A DNA stretch of 64,000 nucleotides from a candidate division FCPU426 bacterium (GCA_963840035.1 CAWIXE010000002.1:320001-384000), one strand, 5' to 3'; counted from the first letter of the stretch, positions 7,372-64,000 are shown. A program made the numbers and translations. The notes: a model not told the origin generated them from the letters alone.

Positions 7372-8700
7372 ATGAAATTGTCACGTAAAATCATTATAAT
7401 TATGGCTCTATTTCTTCTTTTTTCCGCACAGCTATTCCCGGCGGGCGGAGCGGGGATAACTTCTTCTAACTTCCTTAAATTATCCCAGGGCGCAAGGCCG
7501 GCGGGCATGGGTGAGGCTTTTGTCGCGATCGCTGACGACGTCAACGCTGTTTACTGGAATCCGGCGGGATTAGCCCAGCTGACACGCAACCAGGTATGCC
7601 TGATGCATTCTGTCTGGCTTGTGGATGTAAACTTTGAATACATGGCTTACGCCCTTCCCATAAAGGGCTTCGGCACGATCGCGGCTTACGGATTATTCTT
7701 AAATGCCGGGGAAATATTCAAAACCGGGGAAACTCCCGCGGGAGATTATTTATATGACGGCGCGAAGATAAAGGCCACGGATTTTAACGTGACTGTGGCA
7801 TACGCCAAAAAATTATCGGAAATAATCGGGGATGACTCGCTTTTTGCGGACTTATCGCTCGGAATAAACGTCAATATTATCAGCGAAACCATAGCGGATG
7901 ATACCGGCGGCGGATTCGGGGTAAATATCGGCGCTTATTTTTACCCGCGCTATGAAAATTATTCCATGGGGCTGACCCTCGAGAACATCGGGGTTGCCAA
8001 TAACCGCCCGTCGCTGCCCTCGGTCGTTAAATTCGGCTTTGGCTACAGGTTCCCGCTGGAAAACGCCTTCATATCATTCACTGAAGAAGGCTCCTTCAAC
8101 TACATTGAGAATAACGCGGCAGGTTCCGTGGATATACTTTACTACCCGGTGGAAGGTTTCTTTAAGGTCAGGATGGGCGTTGAAAAGTACTGGGAACTGA
8201 ATAAATTCCACACAATAGCCTTAAGGCTCGGTTACAAATTCTTTGAAGACCTTGGGGCGCTCGCCGGTATCACGGCGGGTTTCGGCTACAGGCTTACAGT
8301 AAATAAGGAAACTACCGTTGACGTGGATTACGTTATGTCGCCTTATGCCGAGCTCGGGCTTTCCCAGAGGATATCGGTGACAGGCAAGTTCCTGGGAACC
8401 CCTGAAAGCCATTCCACTGAAAACCCGAAGGAAGCTTCCGTATATTATAAAAAAGGATATGAACTCCTTTACAAAAAACAGTTTTCCAACGCGCTTATCG
8501 AATTCTCAGAGTGCATAAAAAGATACCGCAACTACGCGCCGTCATACATGGGCATAGGCGCCTGTTTTTTAAACATGGGCAAGAAAGCCATGGCAATGAA
8601 AGCTTACGCTAAAGCCCTTGAAATCGACCCGACTAACACCAAACTTAAGGATTATGTGGAGCAGCTTAAAGCCCAGATACCGCCGGTTCCCGGAAGGTAA
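7372..8700 (+). CDS. PorV/PorQ-family outer-membrane beta-barrel with C-terminal TPR extension
   Basis: Signal peptide then FLKLSQGARPAGMGEAFVAIADDVNAVYWNPAGLA (PorV/UPF0164 motif), barrel end LGLSQRISV, then TPRs; start moved to ATG 7372 after GGGAGA. Confidence 0.85.
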   Translation: MKLSRKIIIIMALFLLFSAQLFPAGGAGITSSNFLKLSQGARPAGMGEAFVAIADDVNAVYWNPAGLAQLTRNQVCLMHSVWLVDVNFEYMAYALPIKGFGTIAAYGLFLNAGEIFKTGETPAGDYLYDGAKIKATDFNVTVAYAKKLSEIIGDDSLFADLSLGINVNIISETIADDTGGGFGVNIGAYFYPRYENYSMGLTLENIGVANNRPSLPSVVKFGFGYRFPLENAFISFTEEGSFNYIENNAAGSVDILYYPVEGFFKVRMGVEKYWELNKFHTIALRLGYKFFEDLGALAGITAGFGYRLTVNKETTVDVDYVMSPYAELGLSQRISVTGKFLGTPESHSTENPKEASVYYKKGYELLYKKQFSNALIEFSECIKRYRNYAPSYMGIGACFLNMGKKAMAMKAYAKALEIDPTNTKLKDYVEQLKAQIPPVPGR

Positions 8701-8757
8701 TAAGCCTACTTGCAGCGCATGGAAGACATCTGATAAATAACTGAAGGAGCAAAGCAA

Positions 8758-9753
8758 ATGAGGGTTACGATAAAGGACATAGCAAAGAGGGTGGGTGTGA
8801 CCCCTGCCACTGTTTCCATGGTCATAAACAACAGCCCCAAGATAAGCCAGAAAACAAAGGAGCTTGTGGCAAGCGCCATAAAGGAAATGAACTACCATCC
8901 TAATTATATAGGAAGAAGCCTCGTCAAAGGCAAAACCAATAACATCGCGGTTGTGGCTTCATTTTTTGCGTCGCTTTTTGCCCTTGAGTCTGTCCGCGGC
9001 ATAGAGGCGAATCTAAGGAATACCCAGTATAACCTGATACTGTATTCGACCAGAGGGCTTGAGGAAAACGAGAACGAGATGCTCCGCAGGCTTTTTTATG
9101 AACGCAGGGCCGACGGGATAATAATCATCTCGTTAAGGATGGAAAAGGAACTTCTTGACGAATTCAAGAAGGAAGGCATACCCGTAGTTTTCATAGAAGA
9201 GGTCATAGAAGGCGCGCCAACAGTAAAATTTAAGAATATAAAGGGCGCATATATGGCCACGGAATACTTTGCCAAGAATAAGAGGAAAAACATAGGGCTT
9301 ATAGTGGGGGAATCAGGATTAAACGCGGAGGAACGGCTTAAAGGCTATAAAGACGCCTTAAATGATTTTGGCATGGCATTTGACGAGAAGAATGTCGTGA
9401 GGGTGAAAAATTATAATTTCGAAGAAGGGGAAAAATGCTTAAAACAGCTCCTTAAAAAATCCCCGGATACAGACGCCATATTCTGCGCGGCCGGGGACGT
9501 GACGGCCATAGGCGTGCTTGACGCCGCAAAAGCCATGGGGGTTAAGGTGCCTGACGACATAGCGGTCATCGGGTATGACGATATTTACATATCAAACCTG
9601 ACAAACCCTTCGCTTACCACCATAAGGCAGCCCATCGCCCAGATGGGAAGGCAGGCTTTTGACGTGCTCATGGATATAGTGGAAGGCAAGACGCCGTATG
9701 AAAGCAAAATTATCAGTTTTGAGCCGGAACTCATTATCCGCGATTCAGTGTAA
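8758..9753 (+). CDS. LacI-family transcriptional regulator
   Basis: TIKDIAKRVGVTPATVS HTH; VPDDIAVIGYDD; PSLTTIRQP. Confidence 0.95.
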   Translation: MRVTIKDIAKRVGVTPATVSMVINNSPKISQKTKELVASAIKEMNYHPNYIGRSLVKGKTNNIAVVASFFASLFALESVRGIEANLRNTQYNLILYSTRGLEENENEMLRRLFYERRADGIIIISLRMEKELLDEFKKEGIPVVFIEEVIEGAPTVKFKNIKGAYMATEYFAKNKRKNIGLIVGESGLNAEERLKGYKDALNDFGMAFDEKNVVRVKNYNFEEGEKCLKQLLKKSPDTDAIFCAAGDVTAIGVLDAAKAMGVKVPDDIAVIGYDDIYISNLTNPSLTTIRQPIAQMGRQAFDVLMDIVEGKTPYESKIISFEPELIIRDSV

Positions 9754-9761: not shown

Positions 9762-10688
9762 ATGCCGCTTTCTAAAAACCGTATTTTTAAATCATTGTTT
9801 ATATCAGCGGTTTTGTTCGCGGCAATTCCTTTCAAAATATCTGCTGCCGGAAATACAGCCGGTAGTTTTCTGCTTGTAAACATTCAGGCCAGGGAAACAT
9901 CGCTCGGAGGCATATATGCCCCGTATTACGCGCGGCCCGGGGCTTCCACCATGAACCCGGCAACCCTTCAGGGAATAAAGAACAGCTATGTGATATTTTC
10001 CCATTATGCCTCTGTTTTTAACACGCACTACGAGCAGGTGCAGTATGCCTTGCCGCTGGATGTTTCCTCGTGCGCGGGAGCGTACCTGATGTATTCCGCT
10101 AACGACACTCTCTTTAGGACAAATGAATTCGGCGAGCCTGTGGAGAGGATTGAAAATTATGACGCCATAATAGGAGGGACATATTCGAGGGCCCTCAATG
10201 AAGAGTATAATATAGGGGCAAATCTGAAAGTTGTGGCTGAAAAACTTTATAACAGCACGAACTTCGGGGCGGTTATAACAGCGGGAATGCTTTACAGAAA
10301 TTATGAAAGCAGGTACACTATAGGCGCGGATATTGAAAATTTGGGGATTGGCACATCTTTCTTTAAGGAAAAGACACTGTATCCCATAGTGTTCCGGGCG
10401 GGTTACGGCACTGAAGTATATAAGTATGAGGAAGAGTATAAAATATCGCTTTACATAGAGGAACGCGTTTTTTTAAATGAGGATGAAGGCACCGAGACTT
10501 CTTTCGGGATGGAAGCCATATACAAAAAGTTTTTTGTCTTCAGGTACGGATATATTTTCGGCAGGAACGAGGGCCGGGTGGCCACGGGCGCCGGGATAAA
10601 GCTAAACGATTTTTTTGTGGATTACGCGTATCAGCCGTACTTTGTGTCCGACAACGCGCATAGGGTGACTATAAAATACATGTTTTAA
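9762..10688 (+). CDS. Divergent PorV/PorQ-family outer-membrane protein
   Basis: Signal peptide; GSFLLVNIQARETSLGG...MNPATL; C-terminal VDYAY...HRVTIKYMF ending in Phe. Confidence 0.75.
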   Translation: MPLSKNRIFKSLFISAVLFAAIPFKISAAGNTAGSFLLVNIQARETSLGGIYAPYYARPGASTMNPATLQGIKNSYVIFSHYASVFNTHYEQVQYALPLDVSSCAGAYLMYSANDTLFRTNEFGEPVERIENYDAIIGGTYSRALNEEYNIGANLKVVAEKLYNSTNFGAVITAGMLYRNYESRYTIGADIENLGIGTSFFKEKTLYPIVFRAGYGTEVYKYEEEYKISLYIEERVFLNEDEGTETSFGMEAIYKKFFVFRYGYIFGRNEGRVATGAGIKLNDFFVDYAYQPYFVSDNAHRVTIKYMF

Positions 10689-10770
10689 TTTTGGATTTTC
10701 AATTTTAAATTTTCAATTAACGGCAGATCCTGCCTTTAATTGAAAATTTAAAATATAAAATTGAAAATTG
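10687..10770. repeat. Heptamer-unit inverted repeat, copy 2
   Basis: AATTTTGGATTTTCAATTTTAAATTTTCAATTAA, inner GGCAG-ATC-CTGCC, TTAATTGAAAATTTAAAATATAAAATTGAAAATTG. Confidence 0.8.
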
Positions 10771-10778
10771 GAAGGCAC

Positions 10779-11360
10779 ATGGACGAACTTGAGATCATAA
10801 AGCGCGTTAAAAAAGGCGAGACAAAATATTTTGAGGAAATCATAAACAAATACAAAAAGGTCGTATTCGGCCATTGTTATAATTTTTTGCGCAACAGGGA
10901 AGACGCGGAGGACGTGACGCAGGAAGTGTTTGTCAGCGTATATAACAACCTCGCCTCTTTCAGGGGCGACTCAAAGCTCTCCACGTGGATATACAGGATA
11001 ACCATGAACAGCTGTAAGAACAGGTTAAAACAGATGCAGCGCCTGAAAGCCAATTTTATCGAGGAGTTTTATGAGCCGGGCGGCGAGGAAAGGGAAAGCC
11101 TGGTAAACGAGATACAGGAAAAGGAAGAAAAACAGCCGGACAAGGAATTTGTGTCCGATGACATGCGTAAGACCGTTTATAAAAGGATCGATGAGCTCAC
11201 GGAAGAACAAAAAAACGTGATACTTTTGCGTGATGTGGACGGGCTGTCTTATGAGGAGATCGGCCAGTTGTTGAAGCTTTCTGTTCCGGCAGTTAAATCA
11301 AAACTGTTCAGGGCAAGGGAGAATTTAAGGGAAAAGCTTCAGAAAGACAATATCTTATAA
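10779..11360 (+). CDS. ECF RNA polymerase sigma factor (SigW/RpoE-like)
   Basis: DAEDVTQEVF, FRGDSKLSTWIYRI, region 4 LSYEEIGQLLKLSVPAVKSKLFRAR; start taken at ATG 10779. Confidence 0.93.
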   Translation: MDELEIIKRVKKGETKYFEEIINKYKKVVFGHCYNFLRNREDAEDVTQEVFVSVYNNLASFRGDSKLSTWIYRITMNSCKNRLKQMQRLKANFIEEFYEPGGEERESLVNEIQEKEEKQPDKEFVSDDMRKTVYKRIDELTEEQKNVILLRDVDGLSYEEIGQLLKLSVPAVKSKLFRARENLREKLQKDNIL

Positions 11361-11400: not shown

Positions 11401-11426
11401 CGAAACTTTTTTAGCGGGTCGTTGTC
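11401..11426 (+). promoter_or_regulatory. Putative ECF promoter (anti-sigma gene)
   Basis: CGAAAC-N15-TTGTC; same motif and spacing at 21619, 25534 and 42515. Confidence 0.7.
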
Positions 11427-11454: not shown

Positions 11455-12420
11455 ATGCAAGAAATAAAATGCGAAAAACATAAAGAGCTGATTATGGAAA
11501 TGGTGGACGGTGAAATTAAAGCCGGTGACATTTCCATTGTTGAATCTCATTTGAAATCATGCAAAGAATGCGCCGATTATAAAAAAGACCTTATAAATAT
11601 GACCGTTTTTACGAATTCTATGAAAGTTGAAGCTCCGGATTTCATGGAAACAAGGATTATGGCAAGGATTGCCGCTCCAACAGCAGTTTCCGGGTTCAGG
11701 TGGTTTCCTGCATTATCATATGGAAGCACTTTTGCTGTGGCAGTCATAGCAGGCTTTCTCCTTATATATAACAAGCCTGGAACCGTTGAAGTTAATACTG
11801 CGTCAGTCAAAAAAGCTGAAAAAACAACGGTTGCGTCAGTAAAGAAAGTTACGACTGAAACTTCAAAAACAACTGTAAAATCAGTTGAAATAGCGAAAAA
11901 AGAAGCGCCTGCAGTCATTGATCCACCTAAAAATGAAGAAAAAAAGGAAGTAATTGCTTCCGCGCCATATATGGCGCCGGTTAATTCATCCAATTCAGGC
12001 ATGAGCCAGCAGGTTGTGCCGTCAGGCGGAAACAAGTCAAATGGAGTTTCGCAGGTTGAAAATAGCGGTATGGTATCGGCCGCAAGCGGATTGGACAAAG
12101 TTCCGGTTCCCACGAGAATACCTTTACTTGAAAGTGAAAAAGCGATTGTGGCGAATAACCTTATAAACCCTGACAGGGGAGAAACATCAAGAATAATGAT
12201 TAATGTTGAAGATGCCTGCAGGGTCAGGATAATGATTTACGACAAAAACATGCAGGTTGTCAAAGAGATAGTCGACGAAGACAAACTTCCGGGCAAATAT
12301 GAAGCCTTATGGGCGGGGAAAAATGACGAAAACCGCACAGTTTCACAGGGCGTATATTTTGTTTACATTCAGCTCGGGAAAAGGGTAATTAAAAAGAATA
12401 TTATGGTGGTAAAACAGTAA
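11455..12420 (+). CDS. Zinc-binding anti-sigma factor with TM helix, low-complexity linker and C-terminal FlgD-Ig/T9SS-CTD-like domain
   Basis: HLKSCKEC (HxxxCxxC), one TM helix, K/T/S-rich linker, C-terminal INPDRGE...IYDKN..VVK...WAGKND....SQGVYF....KKNIMVVKQ; directly after the ECF sigma. Confidence 0.82.
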   Translation: MQEIKCEKHKELIMEMVDGEIKAGDISIVESHLKSCKECADYKKDLINMTVFTNSMKVEAPDFMETRIMARIAAPTAVSGFRWFPALSYGSTFAVAVIAGFLLIYNKPGTVEVNTASVKKAEKTTVASVKKVTTETSKTTVKSVEIAKKEAPAVIDPPKNEEKKEVIASAPYMAPVNSSNSGMSQQVVPSGGNKSNGVSQVENSGMVSAASGLDKVPVPTRIPLLESEKAIVANNLINPDRGETSRIMINVEDACRVRIMIYDKNMQVVKEIVDEDKLPGKYEALWAGKNDENRTVSQGVYFVYIQLGKRVIKKNIMVVKQ

Positions 12421-12568: not shown

Positions 12569-15500
12569 ATGAATAAATTATTGAAGGCGTTAGGTACCTT
12601 TTTATTTATATCTGTTATTTTTTGTTATATCACGCCCGCGGCAAGCGGATACGCGACATATCAGGTGACGTACGCGGCGGGGTCGGCGCAGCTAGCGGAC
12701 TCGGCGCTGCTTGAGTCGACGTATTACCCCAACTGGAAAAGCAACTTTGTCGTGACAGCTGGGGCATACCAGAGGGTGAGGTATCCTGAAGGATTGAACA
12801 ATAACGCCGTATACGGCGGTACAGCGTCGGAAGGAATCGGATACGGGATGCTGCTTGCGGTATGGTTTGATGACCAGCCGCTGTTTAACAATTTATGGAA
12901 TTATAAGGTACAGCACTCGGTAAAAGGCGGGCTGATGGCATGGCTCGTGGACCAGAACGGAAATAACTTAGACCCGAACTCCGCGACAGACGCGGACGAA
13001 GACATAGCCATGGCGCTGATACTGGCCCACCGCAGGTGGGGAAGCTCCGGGGTTAACTACAATTCCCTTGCGAGTTTGGAAATCGGAAAGATATCGTCGC
13101 AGGACATAGACACTACGGATTTCCACCCGTACCCGGGGGATTACTGCACGCACGCAAGCAACACAAACACATACCCGTCATACTTCACGCCGGCATGGTA
13201 CCGCGAGTTCGGTATACAGAGCGGAGACACGACGACATGGAACAAGGTAATAGCAAGGACATGGACGATGCTGACCACTGGCGGAACCAGGAGCGGCACA
13301 ACGGGGCTGGCGACAGAGTTGTGCACGGCAAACGGAGGCGCGGTATCAAACATAGACAGTTACAATTCGTGCAGGATACCGTGGAGGTATTCGCTGGATT
13401 ACTGCTGGAACACGGACGCGAACGCGCTGGCGCAGATAAAGCTGAACGCGGCGTTTTTTAACGGATCAGCGACGACATGCGGAGCGGGATACGACATAAA
13501 CGCGGCAAACAACGGAGTAAGGCAGGACGCGACGCATAACGGATCAAGGGTAGGGCCGGTAACCACGGCGTTTATGTACAGCACAGCGCCGGCGGGGCAG
13601 CTGCAGGCGTTTTACAATGACGCTGTAGCGCAGCAGTCGGACACTGGACATTTTTATAACGTATCGCTGGCATTATTAGGAATGCTGCAGGCAACAGGAA
13701 ACTGCCCGAGGATGTTCGGGGCAGCACAGCCGACGCCGACGCCGAAACAGGGAGACCTGTTTGACGACTGCGAAGACGGGGACAATGTAAATATGTGGGG
13801 CGGCTACTGGTATACATACGATGACAATGATAACAATAATAAAGGCACCTCGCTTGTAGTGCCGTGGTCGGACAACCACTCGGCAACAGCGGGAAAGACG
13901 CCGACGCCGTTTTCCATGCAGGCGCCGGGATATCCGACAAGCCCGTACGGCACGGTATTTGGGGCCAGGATGACGGGAAATGTAACCACGGCATGCGCGT
14001 GGGGATTCATAGGGATGGGGTCAGGGACAAGCGCTGACAGCGGATCGCCCACATATGCGGTAAAGGACCTGACGGTATACGGGCTGGCTGCGGGAGGATT
14101 CCGTTTCAAGGTAAAAACCAATGACATTAAGCATTATACGGTAAAGATATCATGCCCGGCGTCTGTAACAAGCGCGGCGGGAGCGGATTATAATTTTGAT
14201 TTTGCCGGATCCACGGCGTGGTCGCAGGTGGACGTGCCGTTCTCGGCGCTGACACAGCCGACATGGCGCACGATAATCATGGATAAGGCGCTGGTATTGA
14301 GAAACGCGACAGACCTTCAGTGGCAGACCGTAGGCCAGCCGACAACGCAGTTTGACATAATGGTGGACGACATAGAGTTCTACCCGGCCCTGCCGGCGAC
14401 ACCTACGCCGACATATTGTGTCGGAGAAAAGCTTGACAGCATGGAAGACGGGGACAACATGAACGAGTTTGGCGGGTTCTGGTATACATACGCCAATGAC
14501 ACAGGTACGGCAAAAGCGTCGACAATATGGCCTGACTCGCCGCATGGGGTCACATTTACCATGAGCGCGCCCGGAGCAAACGGTTCCTTGTTCTGCGCGA
14601 GGATAACAGGGACGGTAAGCAATGCAACAGTGCCGTTTGTCGGGATGGGGACGAACATGAGGTCTGACGGGTCAAGCGCCAACATGGGCGGATTTATCGG
14701 GCTCACATTCTGGGCAAAAGGCGACGGAAACCTGTACAGCGTAAAATTAAAGTCTGACCCGACCGTTATAACTGGCGGCAACGAGTTCAAGTACACATTC
14801 AGGAGCACCATAGGAGCGTCCGAGGGATGGGAACAGATGAACATACCGTTCTCCATATTCACGCAGGAGAGGGGATGGGGCACAAAGACCACGGTGGCGT
14901 TAGTGCTTGCCAAACTGCAGCAAATACAGTTTGAAAGCAAGGGGCCCAGCCATACGGTTGATTTCTCAGTGGATGACGTGGAGTTTGAGTGCTCGCAGAA
15001 CTGGACTCCCACGGTAACTAAAACAATTCAGCCTCCAACAAGCACCATTACGCCCACGCATACGGTATCGCCCACATGGACCAGCTCAAATACGAAATCC
15101 GCGACGCCGACCAAGACGGACACGGCAACATATACTTCCACGGCAACAGGCACGTATACAAAATCATCCACGCCTACCGGGACATATACCAATACGCCGG
15201 CAAACACATCCACAAATACGCCGACAGGCACGAACAGCGCCACCAGGTCAGCGACGCCGACACCCACATTTACAAATTCCCCGGCAAACTCGCCGACGGA
15301 TACCCCGACGGCTACAAGCACTTCCACAAAATCTTCAACCGCGACTTCCACATATACAAATACGCCTATCAATTCCCCGACTAATACGCCGACTGTAACT
15401 GACACGGGCACGAAGACGGCCAGCCCGACGGAGTCTTCGACAAAAACAAGCACGCCGACCGTGACAGAAACCAGCTCGTTTACAAATACGCCGACAAGTT

Positions 15501-16462
15501 CTAACACGGCCACGGTAACGCCTACATTTACTCAAACCCAGACTTTCAGCAATACGCCCACGGCCACGGAGACAGGCACGACAACCGAAACATGGACTGT
15601 TTCGCCTACTTTCACGGCATCCCCTACGATATCAGAGACATATACGAACAGCCCGACATATACGGTTACGGATACAAAAACGTATACCGCTACGGCTACG
15701 CCCAGCAGCACAGGGACCAGCACCAATACAGCCACGGTTACTCCGACCGCGAGTTCCTCTGTCACGGCTACATCTTCGATAAGCCAGACTTCCACGCCGG
15801 GCAATACCTTTACATATACAAATACGCCGGAGAATACATTCACAAACACGCCGGGCAATACCGCCACATATACGAACACGCCGGTAAATACTGCCACAAA
15901 TACGCCGGTTAACACGTCAACAAACACCCCTGCTAACACGGCGACAAATACGCCTGTCAATACCGCAACGAATACTCCGGCAGATACGGCCACTTTTACC
16001 AGGACAAATACTCCTGTGGATACGGCTACTTTCACCAAGACCAATACGCCGGTTAATACCGCAACCGGAACATACACGCCCACAAGCACCATCACAAAAA
16101 CGTTATTACCCACAGCGACGGTTACATATACATCCACGCCGGACACTCAGGCTGTTGACGGATTGAAGCCGCATCCAAACCCATATAACCCTAAAAAAGG
16201 GGATCTGCTTATAGGATTCAGGGTTGCCCGGCCGGATGTGGATTCTATCACTATCAAAGTTTACACGTCGGGGCAGAGGCTTATCAGAAGTGTTACCTTG
16301 AATCAGGCCCAATCCATCATAGCCATGAATATTGGTTATATCGGATGTAAGGCGGATCTGTTTAAAAGTTTATCAAACGGCACCTATTATTACATGATAA
16401 TCGCCAAAAAAGGCGGCACAGAAACTAAATCAAAGATTGACAAAATTATAATATTAAAGTAA
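12569..16462 (+). CDS. Secreted GH8 glycoside hydrolase with 2 CBM11/CIA30-like domains, Thr-rich linker and T9SS-like C-terminal domain
   Basis: Signal peptide; GH8 motifs [11 protein letters not shown] and [10 protein letters not shown]; two [22 protein letters not shown] modules; long T/P/S linker; PHPNP...GTYYY...KIDKIIILK. Confidence 0.88.
12625..15014 (+). repeat. Direct repeat copy A (2390 bp)
   Basis: Appears identical to 16581-18970 (offset 3956); alternative-frame ORFs in the track are also identical. Confidence 0.92.
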
Positions 16463-21618: not shown

Positions 21619-21644
21619 CGGAACATTTGTTATAATAATTTGTC
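21619..21644 (+). promoter_or_regulatory. Putative ECF promoter with embedded extended -10
   Basis: CGGAAC-N15-TTGTC; spacer contains TGTTATAAT. Confidence 0.7.
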
Positions 21645-25533: not shown

Positions 25534-25559
25534 CGGAACTTCTGTTATAATGCGTTGTC
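25534..25559 (+). promoter_or_regulatory. Putative ECF promoter with embedded extended -10
   Basis: CGGAAC-N15-TTGTC(TAA); spacer contains TGTTATAAT. Confidence 0.72.
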
Positions 25560-48731: not shown

Positions 48732-48832
48732 GGATGTTTTTATACGGCCGGATTATGATTCCGGCGCGTCTAATAGGCAGCGGGAAAACTAAGCCTTAAC
48801 CCGAGGTATTACATCACAACACGGAGGTTTTT

Positions 48833-51706: not shown

Positions 51707-51751
51707 TAAACCAATTTTATGAGCCGGCGTATGCCGGCAACCCGAGGAAAT

Positions 51752-52975: not shown

Positions 52976-53049
52976 AGCTTTAAGTTTTAAGATGACTGAG
53001 GGTTTTGTATATCTTAAAACTTCAAACTAAAAACTAAAAACTAAAAACT
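52969..53049. repeat. Heptamer-unit inverted repeat (AGTTTTA / TAAAACT type)
   Basis: AGTTTGA AGCTTTA AGTTTTA AGAT ... ATCT TAAAACT TCAAACT AAAAACT AAAAACT AAAAACT. Confidence 0.72.
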
Positions 53050-53075
53050 GGACATCTCGGTTTTCAAAGGCATAT

Positions 53076-54175: not shown

Positions 54176-54176
54176 C

Positions 54177-54963: not shown

Positions 54964-57900
54964 ATGAAAAAAATCCGCCGGTCACTCACTTTATCCTTTA
55001 TTGCGGTTATTTATACGATTATACTGCCGCTGTTATACGCGGAACCGGCAGTTGTTCCTGCAGTGACCGCGGAAGCCACCGCCGGTGTTACAGCCAATAC
55101 GACTCCGGCAGTGACCGCGGAAGCCACCGCCGGTGTAACAGCCAATACGCCTCCGGCAGTGACCGCGGAAGCCACCGCCGGTGTAACAGCCAATACGCCT
55201 CCGGCAGTGACCGCGGAAGCCACCGCCGGCGTAACAGCCAATACGCCTCCGGCAGTGACCGTACCTGTAATTGCCAACATGGTTGCGGTTGAAAAAGGGC
55301 CGGAAAACCTCAAGGCGCAGGTGTTTGGCATGAGGGTTAACCTGACATGGGAGCCGGTCCCAAAATCCGATTCGGCTGTAACATACACCATATACAGGGC
55401 AACCGGGCCGGACGAGGATTTTATCAGGGTTAATAAGGATGACATAATCACGAACGCTTTTGTCGACTCAAAGGAAACCAGCATCATTTCCTTGATGAGC
55501 GGGATTACTTATTTTTATAAAGTGGCTGCCATAATAAACGGAAGGGAATCCGCGGATTCGAACCTGGCTTCAGCCATACCCGAAGGAATTCTGGCGCCGC
55601 CGGATGAGGTCACGGCTGTTTCGAAAGTGTCCGCTATATTGTTAAAATGGGCTGAGCCTGAATCCTCAGGAAAGCTTGGCCTGTCCGGGTTTAATATTTT
55701 CCGGGCAACGGAAGGCGTCATGGAGAGGATAAATCAGGCCGTAGTAAACGCTTTTGAGTATCCGGACAACAATCTTACCAACGGTGTTAAATATTATTAT
55801 TCGGTCCAGTCCGTGGATTCCGCCGGAAATACTTCTGAGATGTCTTCGCCTGTCTTCGCGATGCCGTTTTCCATAATATCGGAACCGGCAAACGTTTCTT
55901 TTACCGCAGCTTCGTCCGAATCAATAAGGGTCATGTGGGAATCGCCGTCAAACCAGGGGACTTTCGGGATTGCCGGTTACAACATATACAGAAGCACGGT
56001 GCCGGGATATTTTCCCGATAAGCCTTTAAACATAAAACTTTGGAAGGAAATAAAAGGCGAGGATGGCAGGGTTTTTTATCACGACAATGTGGTAAACAGC
56101 GAGAATCCGCCGGCGCCGGGTTTTAATTATTTTTACAAAGTTACCGCTATGGACTCGGCAGGCAACACTGGCGCGTCGAGCGCGGTTGCGTCATTTACCA
56201 TTCCCGTGCTTGAAATTAAACAGTCAGGCACCCTTTCGCAGGACATATCAGAATACGGGCTGCCGCCTGATTCCAGGCTGACACTGGCAGGAAAAAAATC
56301 ACTGGGTATGAGCTATGAATACTTCTGGTATAACAATCCGGAAAACAAGTCGGCCCCCGGGAAATTTGATATCACCCAGAAGCTGAAACTAAAACTCAAC
56401 GGCAACATCGGCAAAAGGATAAATGTTGACGTCAACTATGACGAAGAACTTGCCATGCAGACGGATGAATACACCAAAATAGCCATAAGCTATGCGGGCG
56501 AAAAGGAAGAGGCCCTTCAGGAAGTTTCTTTCGGAGACATGTCCCTGGATTTCCCGGCCACCAGGTATGTCAGTTATTCGCAGACGCTCTTTGGCATAAA
56601 GGGAAAAGTTAAGATCGGTGACAAACTGTCGATCACTGGGATCGGCGCGCAGATAAAAGGCATAACTGAAATCCAGAGTTTTAAGGGAAACATGCGCGAA
56701 AAGGAAGTAAATGGCAAGCGCGGGGTGGATATTTCAGACGTGTCATACAGCCCAAGGGTCTATTATTATATAACAAAGGAACCCGGCGTCAGGATAAGGC
56801 CGGGTTCACTTGTGATATACACGGATGACCAGAATGCCAATACTTTTGACGGGAATACCGTAAAAATGCCGAATAACGGGGGCGATTTTGACCCGAAATA
56901 TTCAGGTATTGATTATATCGTTGATTATGAGGAACGTGTCGTGAAATTCAATATAGCAATCTCCTCAAGCACTGTGATTGCCGCCGGATACATCCAGGAA
57001 GACGGCACTTACGTCGGGTTAAACCCCGACGGGTCATTTGATTTTGTAAACGGCCTTACTTCCGAGTCGCGTGGCTATACAAATTCTTCGGCGCACCTTC
57101 TGCAAAATGGCGTAAGCGCGAGCAATAATCTTGGGGATTTGTCCCACATGGTAGTCAGCTATTATTATATGAGTGATCCGCTTATATACAACCCGAAGCT
57201 TGACCCTGATTTTGTCATCAGGATAGAATCCATTGACGGGTCGAAAATAATCAACATACTCCGGCCGCAGGACCCCGGCGTGGAAGACCAGTATGAAATT
57301 GACACGGACTTCGGAATACTGAAATTCAAGAGCCCGTTCCCGTTTGCCGCCGGACAGCCCGTGGTAACACCGCCTTATTACAACACAAACGGCAATGAGG
57401 CGGATTGTTATAACGTCCTGGACGCGAACAGGCGTTCCAATTACAGGATACATCTGGAATATAAATACTATGTTTCGTCATATAGGCTTGACCATTCGCC
57501 GGTTGTTTTCGGGAGTGAAAGGGTTGAACTAAACGGCGCAATCCTGAAAAAAGATGTGGATTATTTTATCGCGTATGAGACTGGCGATATAAGTTTTTCG
57601 GAGAACAGGAAGAAAGAAATTACATCAAGCTCTGATGTGCGCATTATTTATGAATATTTCCCGTATATGCAGTCCTTTTCATCGAACTTAATAGGCGGAA
57701 GGGTAGATTACCAGCTGCTTGACAACCTCAAGCTGGGTTTAACAGGGTTATATAAGGCTGTGAATGCCGGCTCAACCCTGCCTGACGCGCGTTCCACCGA
57801 GACTTCGCTTGCCACACCGTATAGTTCCATGGTCTTTGACGGGGACATAAAGTTCAATGTAAACAAGGAAACTATGAGCGCTATCATTAATTCGCTTCCC

Positions 57901-60900
57901 GGCATAGACAATGCCCTTGTGCCGGTGGATTACAGCCTCGACGCTGAAATGGCTTACAGCAACTATAACATAAATGTGTTTGACAGGCTTCTGCGCAATG
58001 GCAAGACGGAAAAAGGCGTCGCCATGATAGATTCCATGGAAGGCGCGGACAATGAGTTCTCGGCGTCCATGTCAAAGAACATGTGGTTCCCGGCAAGCCC
58101 ATCTTACGGGATAATACCCACTTCTACAAACAGGGTTTATTTTTCAAGAAAAGACATTACCGAGAAAAGCCATGAATATCAGACAGGGCAGGACGTCTTA
58201 AGCACGGATACCGTAAATATGCTTCAGTTTGATTTTTCCGGGGCAAGCGCGATTAACCAGGATAAATGGGAAGCCTTCAGGTATGTGCTTTCGCAGAACG
58301 GGGAGAGTTTAAAGCAATATAATTACATAGATATGTGGGTTTACGTAAAAGTAAGCCAGCCGGTGAACATGTTCCTCGACATGGGAATAATAAGCGAGGA
58401 TTCGAACGGCTCGGGTAAATTTGACTATAACATTAAGAACAGCAACGGCACAATTACACTCAATGAAAGCGAAGATTATGACCAGAACGGAAGGCTTGCT
58501 TACGCGGATGAGGATTCTGGCATCAGCAACGGGATATACCCGCCCAACCCGGAGTACTGGGGCAAAGGAAATACCGTCCTGGATACCGAGGACATGAATA
58601 ACAACGGCAGGCTTGATAATGTGGAGGCATATTATCAGTATACGCACGTAAACGACAAGCATAAAGCCATGACCCTGACAGGGAACGGGACGTGGGTAAA
58701 TATAAAGATTCCGCTTAAAGATTTTACGGGTGTGGTGGGCAGCGTGGAGGGAAATCCTGCGGCGGCAAACTTCATGTCCAACATAAAGCAGCTGCGCTTA
58801 AGTTTCAGGGGAGCCACTCCGTCCATGTCAAGCGGCACAATAAAGGTGGAATCAATAAAGTTTGTGGGGAATTCATGGCAGCTGCAGTACCTGACAAATA
58901 CCACGGACATGGCGGGGAACGTGATAAACGCGCCTGATACAAATAAATTCAACCTGGTTACCATAAACAGGAACGTGGATAAATCATATGTCCCGAATAC
59001 TGACTTCTTCGATTACCAGGCGGAGACGGACAAGGATTTTGAAGAGGCCCTTGACGCAAAATTCACCATATCAAACCTTGACCAAAATGCAGCGGGCCAG
59101 CCCATATACTACGCCACAAAATCTCTTAACAATACCGGTTCGGGATATGATTACCACGATTATAAATACGTAAAAATGGACATTTTCTATAAAAAATGGG
59201 ACCCGGGAGCCGGCCCGGGAAAGACGTTCTTTATAAGGCTGGGAAGCGGGCCTGACCCCGAGCATAATTATTACCAGTATAACCAGATACTCGGCCAGGA
59301 ATTGAATAACGGCGGCTGGCATACGCTTGTATTTGCCATAGACGGAAGCGACGACAAGCGCAGCCCGGCGCTTGATACGCCGAACCTTCGCTCGGTTCAG
59401 TATATCACCATAGGCTATTTAAACCCCAACAGCATTGAGGCTGATGAGGAAATATACGTAAATAATATTAGGTTGACCGACCCGGCCCAGAAGACGGGCG
59501 GCGCAAGGTACATCAGCCACTCACTGAATTACACGGGATTTGCCAATGTGACACATACATATGAGGAAAGGGATTCTGATTTTTATACGCTTGCGGACGC
59601 CGGCAGGTCGGATATAAAACAGCATAACAGGACAAACAGGGTCGATGTTAATTATAACCAGCTGCCGTTCCTGTCGGAGACCAACAGTTACTCCAAAACG
59701 GAATTGTTTACGGATGAAAAATACGCGCACGACCCGACTTATACCAAGAATGACACTTTAAGCAACACGTTTGTCGAGGCATACAACAATAATACGGGTT
59801 TTAACCTCATACCTGACCTGCCGATTTCATTTAACGCGTCTGTTGAAAATGCCAATTATGTGTATGGGGGCGCGAACGCGTACCTTGCGAACAAGAGGAA
59901 TAAACTGACTTTAAGGCCGAGTTTTACATACAGGGCGCCGCAGGACCTTTTTTCCGTGATACCGCTTGGTTCAAATAATTTTGAGGGAAGCATAACATGG
60001 GAAAATTTAAAAACGGAATATTACAACGGTCAAAGCAGCGGTTATTATAATAACTGGAGGACGGACAGAAAGCAGGACTATAAATGGACCGGGAGCTATA
60101 CTTTTGGCTTTTTAACCCTTCAGCCTTCATATCAGCAGAGGCTTTTTGAGGCCCTGGGGAACCAGTCGGCGCAGTTTGTTTATTATAAGGACATCCTTAA
60201 GGCGGATGATTTTTTCTATGACAGAGATTACCTGGTACTGACCAGGGAAATACTGCCGGTATTGAACATTAATACCGGGGATCTCTGGATATTCAACCCT
60301 ACGGCCGGTTTTTCCAGCAGGTTCTTTACGGACTATACCCAGAGCGTTTTAAACACCACGGGCGGGCTGTGGGCTCAGACCGCGGTAAAATTCAGCTCGC
60401 TTTTGCCTTTCATCCCTGATATTACCAGTTACAGGGTATCGGTGGATACCACCAGCCAGTATAATGATTACGCGTACCCGGGGTCGTTTAAAAGTTTTGA
60501 GGGGATGCCTTTTGAGCGCAAATGGAATGCCTTCATGTGGCGTTATCTTTACAGCGAAGATGAGGTCCGCCGGATTGAAAGTCTTGCGCAGAACGGCACT
60601 TTTGTTTTAAACCACGGGCTGCAGTTCTCGGAGATAAACTTTTTTGGCGTAACGGGATTCCAGCCGGGAGGGTCATACTCGCTTAACAGGACATTTTCAA
60701 GCCGAGGCGCTGTAAGGTCGTTTTCCGAGGTGTATGCGCTTTCGGCCAACAATTTCCATATAGAAAATGTCACCATCCCGCTGCCGTTCATATCTGATTT
60801 TGTTACCAAGGAAAGAATTACCGCGAATTATTATTACAGGCGTACCGTGACCAGGGATTCAAACAAGACGGTTACAAATGACAGCATAGAAAACACTCTC

Positions 60901-61356
60901 GACAACATAGCGCTGACTTACAAGAATCAGGACGGGTTAAACGGCGTGCTTGCGGTTACCCTAAACTGGAAAAATACCCTTGCGGGAAAAGTCCGTTCCT
61001 GGAACAATACGGTTACCCCGAGGTTTACCATGGGCTATAATTACCGCCAGTCAAACCCGTTTACAATCCCGGGATGGGTGCCGTTTGTAGGCGATAAAAC
61101 GATAAAATTTGAACAGGTAATCAATTTTAACCTTAACCTTAACGCCAGCTATACAAGGGGCGGGGACGACAGCGGCAGGCAGACCCTGCCAGTGGATGTC
61201 AATTATTATAACGCCGTACTCTCGGCCAGTTACAATGTGCTTCAGAACCTGAAAGTTATAACGGATTTAAGCTATTCGCAGAGGGATGACAATCTTCTGC
61301 CCATTAATTCACAGAAGTCGCTGCGGTTCGGCGTCAACGGCGAGATAGAGTTCTAA
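54964..61356 (+). CDS. sprA: SprA/Sov-like T9SS translocon homologue with N-terminal repeats and three FN3 domains
   Basis: LNGNIGKRINVDVNYD, LQEVSFGDMSL..QTLFGIK, SERVELNG..LKKDVDY.I.YETG.I.F, AMIDSMEG, LDTEDMNNNG; over 2100 aa; terminal Phe. Confidence 0.75.
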   Translation: MKKIRRSLTLSFIAVIYTIILPLLYAEPAVVPAVTAEATAGVTANTTPAVTAEATAGVTANTPPAVTAEATAGVTANTPPAVTAEATAGVTANTPPAVTVPVIANMVAVEKGPENLKAQVFGMRVNLTWEPVPKSDSAVTYTIYRATGPDEDFIRVNKDDIITNAFVDSKETSIISLMSGITYFYKVAAIINGRESADSNLASAIPEGILAPPDEVTAVSKVSAILLKWAEPESSGKLGLSGFNIFRATEGVMERINQAVVNAFEYPDNNLTNGVKYYYSVQSVDSAGNTSEMSSPVFAMPFSIISEPANVSFTAASSESIRVMWESPSNQGTFGIAGYNIYRSTVPGYFPDKPLNIKLWKEIKGEDGRVFYHDNVVNSENPPAPGFNYFYKVTAMDSAGNTGASSAVASFTIPVLEIKQSGTLSQDISEYGLPPDSRLTLAGKKSLGMSYEYFWYNNPENKSAPGKFDITQKLKLKLNGNIGKRINVDVNYDEELAMQTDEYTKIAISYAGEKEEALQEVSFGDMSLDFPATRYVSYSQTLFGIKGKVKIGDKLSITGIGAQIKGITEIQSFKGNMREKEVNGKRGVDISDVSYSPRVYYYITKEPGVRIRPGSLVIYTDDQNANTFDGNTVKMPNNGGDFDPKYSGIDYIVDYEERVVKFNIAISSSTVIAAGYIQEDGTYVGLNPDGSFDFVNGLTSESRGYTNSSAHLLQNGVSASNNLGDLSHMVVSYYYMSDPLIYNPKLDPDFVIRIESIDGSKIINILRPQDPGVEDQYEIDTDFGILKFKSPFPFAAGQPVVTPPYYNTNGNEADCYNVLDANRRSNYRIHLEYKYYVSSYRLDHSPVVFGSERVELNGAILKKDVDYFIAYETGDISFSENRKKEITSSSDVRIIYEYFPYMQSFSSNLIGGRVDYQLLDNLKLGLTGLYKAVNAGSTLPDARSTETSLATPYSSMVFDGDIKFNVNKETMSAIINSLPGIDNALVPVDYSLDAEMAYSNYNINVFDRLLRNGKTEKGVAMIDSMEGADNEFSASMSKNMWFPASPSYGIIPTSTNRVYFSRKDITEKSHEYQTGQDVLSTDTVNMLQFDFSGASAINQDKWEAFRYVLSQNGESLKQYNYIDMWVYVKVSQPVNMFLDMGIISEDSNGSGKFDYNIKNSNGTITLNESEDYDQNGRLAYADEDSGISNGIYPPNPEYWGKGNTVLDTEDMNNNGRLDNVEAYYQYTHVNDKHKAMTLTGNGTWVNIKIPLKDFTGVVGSVEGNPAAANFMSNIKQLRLSFRGATPSMSSGTIKVESIKFVGNSWQLQYLTNTTDMAGNVINAPDTNKFNLVTINRNVDKSYVPNTDFFDYQAETDKDFEEALDAKFTISNLDQNAAGQPIYYATKSLNNTGSGYDYHDYKYVKMDIFYKKWDPGAGPGKTFFIRLGSGPDPEHNYYQYNQILGQELNNGGWHTLVFAIDGSDDKRSPALDTPNLRSVQYITIGYLNPNSIEADEEIYVNNIRLTDPAQKTGGARYISHSLNYTGFANVTHTYEERDSDFYTLADAGRSDIKQHNRTNRVDVNYNQLPFLSETNSYSKTELFTDEKYAHDPTYTKNDTLSNTFVEAYNNNTGFNLIPDLPISFNASVENANYVYGGANAYLANKRNKLTLRPSFTYRAPQDLFSVIPLGSNNFEGSITWENLKTEYYNGQSSGYYNNWRTDRKQDYKWTGSYTFGFLTLQPSYQQRLFEALGNQSAQFVYYKDILKADDFFYDRDYLVLTREILPVLNINTGDLWIFNPTAGFSSRFFTDYTQSVLNTTGGLWAQTAVKFSSLLPFIPDITSYRVSVDTTSQYNDYAYPGSFKSFEGMPFERKWNAFMWRYLYSEDEVRRIESLAQNGTFVLNHGLQFSEINFFGVTGFQPGGSYSLNRTFSSRGAVRSFSEVYALSANNFHIENVTIPLPFISDFVTKERITANYYYRRTVTRDSNKTVTNDSIENTLDNIALTYKNQDGLNGVLAVTLNWKNTLAGKVRSWNNTVTPRFTMGYNYRQSNPFTIPGWVPFVGDKTIKFEQVINFNLNLNASYTRGGDDSGRQTLPVDVNYYNAVLSASYNVLQNLKVITDLSYSQRDDNLLPINSQKSLRFGVNGEIEF
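55057..55260 (+). repeat. Tandem repeat, about 4.25 x 48 bp (PAVTAEATAGVTANTP)
   Basis: Near-identical units CCGGCAGTGACCGCGGAAGCCACCGCCGGTGTAACAGCCAATACGCCT. Confidence 0.92.
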
Positions 61357-61377
61357 GAATAACTGGAGGGTTTTATT

Positions 61378-64000
61378 ATGAAAAGGTTTATGATTATGGC
61401 AGCGGTTTTACTGGCGGCCGCGGACATGGCGCTTGCGTTAAACGCGCCAAGCAATATTGCGATATCCTCGTCGGGGACTGATATTACGCTGCAGTGGTAC
61501 ATGCCCGTAACCAAGACAGGCGATAAGGCCATACAGTCTTATAAGGTTTACCGCGCCACATACGCCAATGTAAATGACATAAACTGGAACATCATAGGGT
61601 CAGAAGGAAAGTCAGCGGATGTGGATACATATACACTTACACTCAACACATACGTTGACGCCGGGGCCAATACCTCCGCGGGTTACTACTACAGGGTCCA
61701 GGCAGTCGATAGTGACTCTATAGGCGGAACTCTTACGTCTGCTATTGTGTCATACCCATACGGCCCGCAGTCATTGACTGTCACGGCGTATAACGCAAAG
61801 ACGGCGCTGGAATGGGACACGGGATATGACGCGCAGATAACCGGATACAATATTTACAGGTCCACATCTCCGGCAATTCCCGACCTCGTGAAAATAGCAA
61901 GTTCTGCATCAGGAAAATACACTGACCCGTCAGTTTATAACGGCAGGCAGTATTTTTATTCTGTCAGGCCTTATCTGGGTACTGTTGAAGGCTCCATGTC
62001 GTTAACAAAAAGCGTGGTGCCGTTCGCACCGCCCTATTCTCCCGTGCATGTTTCATCCATTGTTTCAGTAGGAGGACAGGTAACCCTAAACTGGGCAGGC
62101 CAGACACTGGCCGGGACTTTTCCTGTGTCATGCTATAACATATACAGGACAGGCGGAGGCGGGCCCGCATTCTCAGATGTGACTTTTACCGCCGGATACA
62201 CGGAGGCATTGACCGCAGGAGAAATATACACATATTCGGTATCGGTGTCAGATTCAATGGCAAATACATCGCTTCCGTATACTTTAAAGGTGTACGTACC
62301 GGGGCTGCCGTCAAAACCACAGGGATTTATCATATCTGATTACCGGTCGTTCGGGGCGTCCCTGACATGGGCCGCGAATGACCCACTTGAAGGGGTAACT
62401 TTTTACAGAATATTCAGGGATTCCTTACAGGTGCAGATGAACGCGCTTAATTACGCCAGCGACACGGGCCTGACTGAAGGAAATACATATACATATTATG
62501 TAGTGGCTAATAACGCAGCTGGTGACAGCGTGGCCTCAGACAGCGCTGTGATTACGGCAAAAGCGTCACCGCCAACAGATGTTACAGTGGTTAAAGGGCA
62601 GCCCGGGGAACTGGCGGTTACGTGGGCGGGCGTCCCATTCACGGAAAATGTGACAGGGTATAATGTCTACAGGGCTGAACTGCCCGGGGCTATTAATTAC
62701 TCGTCGCCATGGGCGGTTACGGAGACTTCTTCATTCATTGATTCCGGATTAAACACGGCCGCGTCATATGTCTACGCGGTGTCCGGTTTTACGTCGATGG
62801 AAGGGCAGTTTTCTTCTGAAGTTTCCGGAAAGGCAGTCACGCTTCCCGCCGACGTTACCGGGCTTTCGCTCCAGCCAAACACTAATTATATAAACCTAGC
62901 CTGGGATTTGCCGGACGTGTCATACGAGACAAGCGCTTATAATATTTACAGGGCTACCGACAGCGGCGCGGAATACTCAAAGATGGGCACGACTGTTTCC
63001 GCATTTTATCAGGATAGAAACCTTTTAAATACAATTGATTACTATTATAAAATAACGTCGCTGAATTATTACGGCGAAAGCACTCTGACCGCTGCCGCGG
63101 CGCAGCACGCCATGACATCACCGGCAGCGGCGCCTGATGCGCCGCGTAACCCTGTTTTAGTTTCAACCGGGGACGGAAAAATAAGCATTAACTGGAGCGC
63201 GGCGCCGCCGGGCAGTCTGGTTACAGCTTACAATGTATACAGGAGCATGGCGCCGGGAGTATATGCTGATGCGCCGGTCGGAGTAACCCTTACAACCGCT
63301 TCATTTACCGACACACCGCCGCTGGCTGACACGGTTTATTATTATACCGTTAAGGCGGTAAGCACAGGCGAAAGCCCGGCTTCCGCTGAGGTTTCCGGCA
63401 AAGCGTACATAAAACCGGGCAGCCCCAGGAACCTTCAGCTTGATTATTTGAACAGCCAGGTAATGCTTACGTGGGAAAAGCCGGTTTCTGATGGCACGTA
63501 TCCATATCAGTATAAGATATACAGGGGAACTTCTGTCCTTACGATTGCGGCGGCGGGAATCACAACGACAAGCCTTAAAGTATTTGACGGGGCTGTAAAT
63601 ACCATGACAGCGTCATATTATTACAGGGTCAGGTCTATTGACACGCAGGGCCATGAGGATTCAGGGACGGATTATACCGTCATTACGATTTCATCACCCG
63701 TATTTCCGCCTTCGGTACTTGTGGCAAAACCGGGTCCCGGCAGGGTAATGCTTGTATGGAGAAAAGTAAGCCCGGATTATTATAATATATACAGGAGGAC
63801 CGTGGGCAGCCTTACGGAGCGCCTCATGCGGTAAATGTGGATTTTGGCGCAAGCGTATTTACGGATACTGACGTGATAACAGGTACTGAATATTTTTACT
63901 GCATTGCGGCCTCTAATTTTGCCGGGGAAGGGCCAAAGTCAAACGAAGCTTCAGCAGTGCCGTATATCGCGGCTAAATTGCCGGTGCAGTCAAACATAAC
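61378..64000 (+). CDS. Secreted multi-fibronectin type III protein (continues beyond window; 1-nt frameshift near 63804)
   Basis: Signal peptide; repeated L.W...Y.IYR...Y.D...YYY.V.A units; adding one G at 63804-63806 continues in FN3 register (GQPYGAP...FTDTDV..GTEYFYCIAASN) to window end. Confidence 0.82.

Follow-up and report, generated by a model that had tools for sequence, protein, structure and literature searches.

Gene content of the locus

A gene cluster encoding a putative export apparatus of the T9SS (type IX secretion system) kind, together with polysaccharide-degrading cargo, was analyzed in a 64,000-nucleotide stretch of DNA from a candidate division FCPU426 bacterium (GCA_963840035.1, CAWIXE010000002.1:320001-384000; hereafter the window), in which all 33 main open reading frames (ORFs) lie on the + strand. 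From position 7372 onward, the genes encode PorV1 with a TPR extension, a LacI regulator, PorV2, an extracytoplasmic function (ECF) sigma factor, an anti-sigma factor, two family 8 and two family 9 glycoside hydrolases (GH8 and GH9), two unclassified barrels, five small proteins of the carbohydrate-binding module (CBM) type, GH9c, the putative glycanase GHx, a PorV3–FlgD–OmpA fusion, two TPR proteins, a second LacI regulator, an O-antigen-ligase-like protein, a GT9 glycosyltransferase, a hypothetical protein, SprA, and an FN3-repeat protein (Table 1). These 57 kb hold the genome's sole sprA, 3 of its 38 PorV-family genes, six glycanase-type proteins carrying a related C-terminal domain (CTD), and a predicted sigma-factor switch. 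Sequence profiles and structure models make it probable that a type-9-like export system serving the whole genome of a diderm outside the Bacteroidota has its hub here, with no GldLM/KN motor or PorU sortase detectable. SprA, the PorV family, and the CTD co-occur across the phylum, being detected in 40, 41, and 41 of 41 genomes, respectively.

Table 1. Features of the locus in window coordinates
Feature	Position	Strand	Basis
PorV1: PorV-family barrel with C-terminal TPR, opens the conserved 5' block	7372..8700	+	NF033709, 139.5 bits
LacI-family regulator 1	8758..9753	+	PF00356/PF13377; called in 17/19 relatives' blocks
PorV2: stand-alone PorV-family barrel	9762..10688	+	NF033709, 104.6 bits
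ECF sigma factor	10761..11360	+	PF04542/PF08281, TIGR02937
ECF-type promoter motif G(G/A)AAC-N16-TGTC before the anti-sigma gene	11402..11426	+	motif scan
Anti-sigma factor: zinc finger, one transmembrane helix (aa 86-104), long low-complexity linker, C-terminal CTD	11455..12420	+	zf-HC2, E 9e-5; CTD profile, E 1e-19; hydropathy
GH8 with CBM11/CIA30-like modules, Thr/Pro linker, CTD	12569..16462	+	PF01270, E 1e-40
Second GH8-CBM-CTD protein	16531..21360	+	first ~815 aa 98% identical to preceding GH8
ECF-type promoter motif before GH9a	21620..21644	+	motif scan
GH9a with possible CBM3, linker, CTD	21704..25177	+	PF00759, E 8e-71; CBM3 weak, E 0.04
ECF-type promoter motif before GH9b	25535..25559	+	motif scan
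GH9b with linker, CTD	25615..28518	+	PF00759, E 7e-79
Two unclassified outer-membrane barrel genes, 805 and 715 aa, C-terminal Phe	28792..33372	+	no Pfam match
CBM9-like protein and four small CBM11/CIA30-like proteins, lipoprotein-like N-termini	33492..37598	+	PF06452, PF03425, PF08547
GH9c with CelD-type Ig domain, linker, CTD; frameshift near 39230	37778..42383	+	PF00759 on both halves
ECF-type promoter motif before GHx	42516..42540	+	motif scan
GHx: unclassified putative glycanase with linker, CTD; usual first gene of the sprA block	42603..45059	+	synteny
PorV3: fusion of a PorV-family barrel with an FlgD-type Ig region and an OmpA peptidoglycan-binding domain	45328..47643	+	NF033709, 107.9 bits; PF00691, E 5e-20
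TPR and TolB-like propeller lipoprotein-type protein, then 617-aa TPR protein	47640..50686	+	domain scans
LacI regulator 2, O-antigen-ligase-like gene, GT9 glycosyltransferase (frameshift near 53905), membrane-anchored hypothetical protein	50690..54839	+	order before sprA conserved
SprA/Sov homologue, 2130 aa, N-terminal FN3 domains	54964..61356	+	profile and fold matches
FN3-repeat protein with terminal CTD; frameshift near 63800	61378..64000, on to C2:384589	+	CTD profile

Frameshifts break GH9c, the GT9 gene, and the FN3 gene. They are likely, though unproven, assembly errors, since all three genes are intact in relatives (GH9c is a single 1154-aa ORF in genome G002) and the GH9c and GT9 breaks sit at short base runs. 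The true start of PorV3 is probably near 45570.

The SprA homologue

A reading made earlier from the DNA alone (the sequence-only reading) had placed an SprA homologue here and expected it to model as an SprA-type fold, and both parts are borne out, the fold for the stretch modelled. The protein scores 188.2 bits against TIGR04189 (curated cut-off 200), a 15-sequence profile built on it matches Flavobacterium johnsoniae SprA (PDB 6h3i) with E 1.4e-48, and hhalign aligns 1076 columns with a Bacteroidetes-labelled SprA at a probability of 100%. The profile was needed because a direct phmmer search of the PDB matched FN3 proteins only. A model of the C-terminal 1111 residues takes the form of a long beta meander (predicted local distance difference test (pLDDT) score 84.6, predicted template modeling score 0.49), for which Foldseek returns SprA structures at ranks 1–4 (E 5e-33 to 2e-27; next match 1e-7). 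By profile and modelled fold, the protein is an SprA homologue, encoded by one gene copy in the source genome. Among the loci outside the order (L042-L069), short SprA forms of 1742–1846 aa, several labelled Firestonebacteria, match the query only from about residue 416–433 onward and are encoded without an adjacent FN3-CTD gene.

The C-terminal tail and its cargo

Six glycanases with a related end of about 90 aa had been described in the window. Six related ends of about 100 aa with YT..RL and G.YY motifs are indeed present (genes starting at 12569, 16531, 21704, 25615, 39168, and 42603), but only five of these proteins are assigned to families, two to GH8 and three to GH9, and the count was incomplete, as the anti-sigma factor and the FN3 protein after sprA carry the tail too. 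The sixth, GHx, has no Pfam, NCBIfam, or PDB match; an atlas look-up relates its ~430-aa domain at 0.95 to unnamed clusters (Actinomycetota, Pseudomonadota), the only named lead being GH26 at 0.83, and its sequence may represent an undescribed glycoside hydrolase family.

The tail had also been set beside the type A CTDs of Bacteroidota. The best scores of seven window tails, 16.8 bits for TIGR04183 (cut-off 23) and 16.4 for PF18962 (cut-off 27), all lie below threshold; weak matches are to TIGR04183, the C-termini of PorU and PorZ, and FlgD_ig. A model from a 19-sequence alignment is a seven-strand sandwich (pLDDT 94.7). Fold comparison ranks the PorU CTD second (Z 11.2, root-mean-square deviation 2.5, 96 aligned), tied with the unrelated Ig domain at the Vpr C-terminus (11.6), with the mirolase CTD at Z 9.4, and the PorU CTD is also the best sequence match of the CTD profile in the PDB (E 0.009). 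The Ig-like fold expected for the tail is thus what the model shows; because the cut-offs are missed while fold and sequence match the PorU CTD, the tail is, by these comparisons, related to type A CTDs but diverged from them, and no member by score.

An iterated CTD profile run over the called genes of the source genome gave 101 C-terminal matches, against 0 in reversed-sequence decoys; two PorV extensions were removed. The domain is strictly C-terminal on the remaining 99 or so diverse secreted-type proteins, 8 of them at this locus and 91 elsewhere. Pfam domains (E 1e-8; first ≤1000 residues of the 91 outside cargo, plus the window cargo; manual tally) place carbohydrate-active enzyme (CAZyme) or CBM modules on 33 of the 99, leaving 66 without such a match; other cargo includes subtilases, NHL, kelch, and FG-GAP propellers, DUF11, and ice-binding domains, and many proteins match nothing. 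Among 16 CTD-tagged GH5/8/9/44 proteins, five lie in the window and 11 outside. All six window tails fall into a 34-member CTD group in which CAZyme/CBM modules are frequent (26/34, against 7/65 outside the group) and pairing with a PorV gene is rare (1/34, GHx with PorV3, against 21/65).

PorV-family carriers and their pairing with cargo

The three PorV-like genes reported in the window are upheld by NF033709, each scoring above the cut-off of 90 bits (Table 1), although none of the three reaches the cut-offs of the PorV equivalog NF033710 or PF19572. Across the genome, NF033709 retrieves 38 genes, 27 above cut-off, and 35 of the 38 lie outside the window. A PorV3 profile matches the PorV chain 6h3i_F (E 5.6e-4). 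PorV1 has orthologues in 18 of the 19 order genomes fetched, the 19th being cut at the region edge; PorV2 in 23/24 order genomes and 0/17 others; and the PorV3-OmpA fusion in 22/24 order genomes. The closest paralogues of PorV2 belong to another anti-sigma-CTD module, and PorV2 is likely the partner of the anti-sigma CTD.

Carriers and cargo are linked by gene order: a CTD gene directly precedes a PorV gene in 22 of 38 cases (random mean 1.2, maximum 7, 2000 draws), and several CTD clades mirror PorV clades in trees. When the GH9c tail was co-folded with the PorV3 barrel, the ipSAE score was 0.69 versus 0.01 for the best of three controls, runs shared at least 84% of contacts, and partner pLDDT was at least 84; the mark used is attained by 116/157 solved and 2/215 mismatched pairs. 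The predicted interface joins invariant PorV N-terminal and loop residues to the YT..RL and G.YY segments of the CTD. A candidate general carrier is an orphan PorV at C2:65239-66183 (locus L178), the best-scoring member of the family, which follows closely on the ATP synthase operon and carries the ECF-type motif.

These data also bear on a deflationary explanation, in which the tail is an ordinary FlgD/Ig surface-binding module, the PorV-like barrels serve structure or uptake, the glycanases exit by another route, and SprA acts in, for example, envelope biogenesis. The Ig fold of the tail is generic, an FlgD-type domain also occurs on the periplasmic side of PorV3, sprA lies beside lptFG or lipopolysaccharide-type genes, and several PorV-OmpA fusions have no cargo neighbor. 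Against this stand the strictly C-terminal position of the domain on many diverse secreted-type proteins, its best sequence match to the PorU CTD, PorV pairing far above chance, a co-fold that uses invariant PorV loop and CTD residues, and phylum-wide co-occurrence with SprA and PorV, which together make such an explanation very improbable.

Conservation of the locus

Comparison with relatives resolves the locus into two order-conserved blocks that are joined here. The 5' block begins at PorV1 whatever adjoins it upstream. Its PorV2–ECF–anti-sigma core recurs in 19/19 of the order genomes that were fetched from among the 22 relatives having an orthologue of PorV2, and the gene after the anti-sigma factor has the GH8 cargo as best match in 17/17 relatives where the contig continues. 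The 3' block comprises PorV3, the two TPR genes, sprA, the FN3-CTD gene, and mutL; PorV3 and both TPR genes precede sprA in 12/13 order genomes examined. A CTD gene follows sprA in 20/30 loci with downstream DNA. In many relatives, a gene of ~540 aa lies directly before sprA (L013:12389-14008, with an MCP-signal domain; also L015, L017, L021, and L029), a place where the source genome has none.

Clustering of cargo, carriers, regulators, and sprA, as the sequence-only reading had it, is therefore real and conserved across relatives. That reading had gone further and seen a self-contained T9SS variant dedicated to the cellulases of this locus. In its favor, G002 has the whole array over two contigs that abut, G009, a member of another family, has uptake genes, cargo, and PorV3 in linkage, and the gene at 7372 is precisely where the conserved 5' block begins. 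However, a single sprA serves a genome in which 91/99 CTD proteins and 35/38 PorV genes lie elsewhere, the 5' and sprA blocks occupy separate loci in G010 and G012, and in 20/23 loci outside the order for which upstream DNA is available, sprA has divergent lptFG as a neighbor and this cluster is lacking. Dedication to cellulases is likewise contradicted by the 66 cargo proteins without a CAZyme/CBM match and by the 11 CTD-tagged GH5/8/9/44 enzymes encoded outside the window. As worded, the idea is largely refuted and very improbable; since the single sprA stands apart from most cargo and carriers, the locus is better described as a probable hub than as a self-contained or dedicated system.

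Missing components and energy supply

No PorK/L/M/N, PorP, or PorU family match had been recognized in the window, and domain-library scans confirm this. The canonical motor also appears absent genome-wide, with no GldL, GldM, or GldN match in the source genome. GldN (PF19841) and GldM (PF12081) were searched in the 41 phylum genomes and found in none (0/41 each), whereas GldL, the C25 sortase, and PorP were searched in the source genome only. There, the GldL/GldM models TIGR03517 and TIGR03513 and the PorU sortase (C25, PF01364) gave no match with E up to 1, the genome being 98% complete, and PorP/SprF (PF11751) reached at best 15.6 bits against a cut-off of 22.3, on PorV-family genes. The same GldN search was positive in 6/31 genomes of another phylum (G041-G071), while G041, a Bacteroidetes-labelled genome tried as a GldN/GldM control, has neither. 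In that Bacteroidota-labelled phylum sample (31 genomes, completeness not given), 26 genomes carry sprA and 6 GldN, and since 20 of the 26 sprA-bearing genomes are also without detectable GldN, the motor-less state is not special to this phylum.

One alternative is that the host has a complete T9SS working as in Bacteroidota, whose motor, ring, and sortase have diverged too far for current hidden Markov models. Given that SprA itself reaches only 188 bits and the CTDs stay below their cut-offs, less conserved parts could escape detection; four FGE-sulfatase-family proteins, of the GldK fold family, are encoded elsewhere in the genome; and in Flavobacterium, motor-driven release of the carrier from SprA is the energy-requiring step (PMC10994853). 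Set against it are the negative single-genome searches to E 1 and the 41-genome GldN/GldM searches, the lack of conserved motor or sortase genes near sprA, and the extensive carrier–cargo pairing, which fits sortase-free anchoring. A cryptic complete system appears improbable, though less so than the deflationary explanation above, and the type-9-like system without a recognizable motor or sortase is preferred.

Candidate accessory parts were nevertheless found. The TPR/TolB-like pair after PorV3 comprises candidate periplasmic accessories that may have a PorE- or SprE-like role; the gene at 48833 scores 39 of 250 bits against NF052312 (SprE/PorW), over a generic TPR stretch only. A single Skp gene lies in the bamA operon. 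The source genome has four ExbB/MotA-family and five TonB_C matches, and one operon (L090, C2:1329528-1343156) combines CTD cargo, a PorV-FlgD protein, a 1037-aa TPR lipoprotein-type protein, ExbB, two ExbD-like proteins, and TonB, with no TonB-dependent receptor. In G012 and G010, this operon lies 28–41 kb upstream of sprA, and it is a candidate for the motor. A second TPR-ExbB-TonB operon occurs at C3:78759-85217.

Proposed mechanism and points against it

On modelling and by analogy with Flavobacterium, CTD-dependent, SprA-dependent export across the outer membrane by this system is likely. Sec would carry the cargo over the inner membrane. The CTD would then bind the loops of a PorV-family barrel at the lateral opening of SprA, as in Flavobacterium (PMC10994853), and folded, CTD-tagged cargo would likely be passed by SprA to PorV-family carriers and retained on the cell surface. 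Because no sortase was found and many carriers are paired with cargo, the CTD is probably not cleaved, leaving the carrier as a lasting anchor; that the system follows type-B CTD/PorP logic on type-A-like tails in this way is an evenly balanced proposition. Members of the 34-member glycanase CTD group may share one or a few carriers, with PorV3-OmpA, PorV1, and the orphan at C2:65239 as the candidates. Held at the surface, the glycanases would act while touching cellulose, and the oligosaccharides set free would be imported by the barrel pair together with the CBM lipoproteins. Among possible drivers of carrier release, a general ExbB/ExbD/TonB-type motor comes first, tentatively at about one chance in three, with passive release or an unrecognised motor sharing the remainder.

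Several observations weigh against this account. Both SprA and the CTDs score under curated cut-offs, and the CTD fold is a common Ig-like sandwich, with 226 chains at Z ≥ 8 and PorU only 20th by Foldseek. Solved PorV–CTD complexes exist (8gl6, 8gl8) and could let the co-fold succeed through resemblance; it speaks for likeness, and neither for specificity towards PorV3 nor for binding of this pair. Overall CTD–PorV co-variation is weak (rho 0.19, reached by 101 of 2000 permutations, one 132-aa pair left out), and the glycanase CTD group rests on a Shimodaira–Hasegawa-like approximate likelihood ratio test value of 80 in a quick, unfinished tree. Two genomes that encode glycanase-type CTDs, G004 (94% complete, with an unbroken locus) and G016, lack PorV3, so it cannot be the only possible carrier, and its candidacy as sole obligatory glycanase carrier is weakened. 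The searches for GldL, GldM, PorU, and PorP had no positive control, and divergent forms are possible. The mechanism has a gap at carrier release, since release from SprA needs a motor in Flavobacterium (PMC10994853). The TPR protein of the Ton operon has clear orthologues in 21/24 order genomes and only 5/17 others, which weakens the ExbB/ExbD/TonB operon as a universal motor.

Regulation

Four genes, those for the anti-sigma factor, GH9a, GH9b, and GHx, proved on inspection of intergenic DNA to be preceded by the sequence G(G/A)AAC-N16-TGTC, which we take to resemble an ECF promoter. The window has six copies of the motif, where 0.59 would be expected. Across the genome, CTD genes make up 13 of the 34 genes that bear it, compared with 99 of 3104 overall; without the four genes that suggested the motif, the figure is 9/30, and eight other spacings give 0–1. 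Relatives retain it before the anti-sigma gene (19/19), GHx (7/7), and GH8-like genes (10/26), whereas it was absent before PorV3 (0/13) and sprA (0/7). The motif marks cargo and the feedback anti-sigma factor and leaves the translocon block unmarked. Because it is found at other ECF genes as well, the link to the sigma factor of this locus is drawn from gene linkage. A circuit in which the ECF sigma factor would drive the glycanase genes and its own anti-sigma factor, and the anti-sigma CTD would sense the export route through PorV2, is put at even chances.

Standard promoters noted earlier in the window were recovered as consensus sigma-70-like sites at 12431 (11/12), 28720 (11/12), and 37747 (12/12). 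A LacI-type operator seen by eye before the genes at 28792 and 42603 was rejected: it is absent in 9/9 relatives' upstream regions and not enriched genome-wide, and no conserved LacI operator was found.

Host

A host outside the Bacteroidota, with Goldbacteria as a plausible lineage, had been proposed, and the labels of related sprA loci and the porin cluster agree. The closest sprA loci (39–46% identity) are labelled Spirochaetia, 'bacterium', or Ca. Goldiibacteriota (L035, L037, L039), and more distant ones include Ca. Firestonebacteria; the sole Bacteroidetes locus is the weakest match (E 1e-7). The atlas cluster nearest the second porin is commonest in Ca. Goldiibacteriota, and the GH5/8/9/44 and CBM11 repertoire matches that of Ca. 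Goldbacteria (PMC7031533). Depositor taxon labels of the related loci conflict. The source genome carries bamA, lpxA, lpxC, and flagellar rod genes, and its host, uncultured and likely cellulose-degrading, is most likely, on these sequence comparisons, a diderm of Ca. Goldiibacteriota.

Relation to known systems and significance

The closest known counterpart is the type A SprA–PorV translocon of F. johnsoniae (6h3i, 6h3j, 8gl6, 8gl8; PMC10994853), with which the present system shares an SprA-type giant barrel, PorV carriers, seven-strand tails, and polysaccharide-degrading cargo. It differs in that no GldL/M/N, PorU, or PorP was detected, that 38 PorV-family genes stand in place of one shared type A carrier, many of them with C-terminal TPR, FlgD, or OmpA extensions, and that SprA measures 2130 aa with N-terminal FN3 domains rather than 2403 aa. 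Type B CTDs with PorP/SprF shuttles (PMC12618676) offer a parallel in the carrier gene directly after the cargo gene, orphan cargo probably on an orphan carrier, and a lasting anchor, but here the carriers are of the PorV family, the tails are PxPNP type-A-like, no PF11751 match exceeds the cut-off, and there is no gliding track. The TPR, TolB-like propeller, and OmpA domains of three adjacent genes recall the TPR-WD40-CRD-OmpA lipoprotein PorE (PMC12204202, PMC12773672), although they are split, with OmpA fused to a PorV barrel, and the likeness is limited to generic domains. In regulation, the sigma-I/RsgI systems of Clostridium thermocellum (PMC4711584, PMC6582324) similarly link a membrane anti-sigma factor with an extracytoplasmic domain to cellulase control; here, the sigma factor is of ECF type, the anti-sigma factor has a zinc finger, the outer domain is a secretion tail and not a carbohydrate-binding module, and the host is diderm.

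Ca. Goldbacteria share GH5, GH8, GH9, and GH44 cellulases with many CBM11 modules, and three of their GH9 enzymes were shown to be active (PMC7031533). The main text of that paper contains neither 'T9SS' nor 'C-terminal', and 'secretion' occurs in one reference title only. A 2024 paper placed possible T9SSs in phyla of the Fibrobacteres–Chlorobi–Bacteroidetes (FCB) group only, with the genes absent elsewhere (PMC11285876), and the present host lies outside the FCB phyla listed there. Published descriptions of a T9SS were not found for Goldbacteria, Firestonebacteria, or FCPU426, as judged from main texts with thin coverage of subscription papers. This locus adds the translocon operon and its conservation, together with statistics on the carriers and a promoter motif.

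A phylum with SprA, an expanded PorV family, the tail on about 3% of genes, and no GldLM/N seen makes the question of what a minimal type 9 machine consists of testable, as well as the question of whether the gliding-related motor was a later addition. This significance is tempered, since sprA without detectable GldN is also common (20/26) in the Bacteroidota-labelled sample. The system suggests a possible route by which Goldbacteria, known cellulose degraders (PMC7031533), display large cellulases on their surface, and the short promoter motif predicts part of a cellulase regulon. A more speculative synthesis, which we regard as rather unlikely, is that Goldiibacteriota harbor a motor-less, sortase-less, possibly ancestral type 9 form, in which a single SprA would load about 100 folded proteins onto about 38 PorV anchors, a wall-tethered PorV-OmpA cellulase array would be the diderm counterpart of the cellulosome, and the tail-bearing anti-sigma factor would report translocon activity to a cellulase-switching ECF sigma factor.

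Neighboring genes and other observations

The two unclassified barrels had been described as SLH-anchored porins. Pfam finds no SLH domain on either, porin N-termini included, whereas an atlas look-up of the gene at 31225 returns SLH-porin clusters at 0.96 and 0.94. Paralogues of the pair at C2:606832-611289 lie beside a sugar-binding protein and a BNR/Sortilin-type hydrolase (C2:606-613 kb), and such large unclassified barrel pairs recur beside sugar-binding proteins and glycanases. From this context, the pair is probably a non-SusC oligosaccharide uptake pair.

The two GH8 genes (12569-15000 versus 16531-19000) are 98% identical over ~815 aa with different C-terminal halves, suggesting a recent duplication or gene conversion. 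Just upstream of the locus, YfhO-like and TMEM260-like (protein O-mannosyltransferase-like) genes at 2829-7162 could act in glycosylation of the Thr/Pro linkers; they do not adjoin the 5' block in the 19 relatives fetched. A complete polyamine operon at 583-2832 encodes a pyruvoyl arginine decarboxylase, spermidine synthase, and agmatinase. Finally, an AT-rich palindromic repeat (TTTTCAATT...AATTGAAAAT) recurs in three intergenic regions, at 7150-7290, 10680-10770, and 36830-36920.

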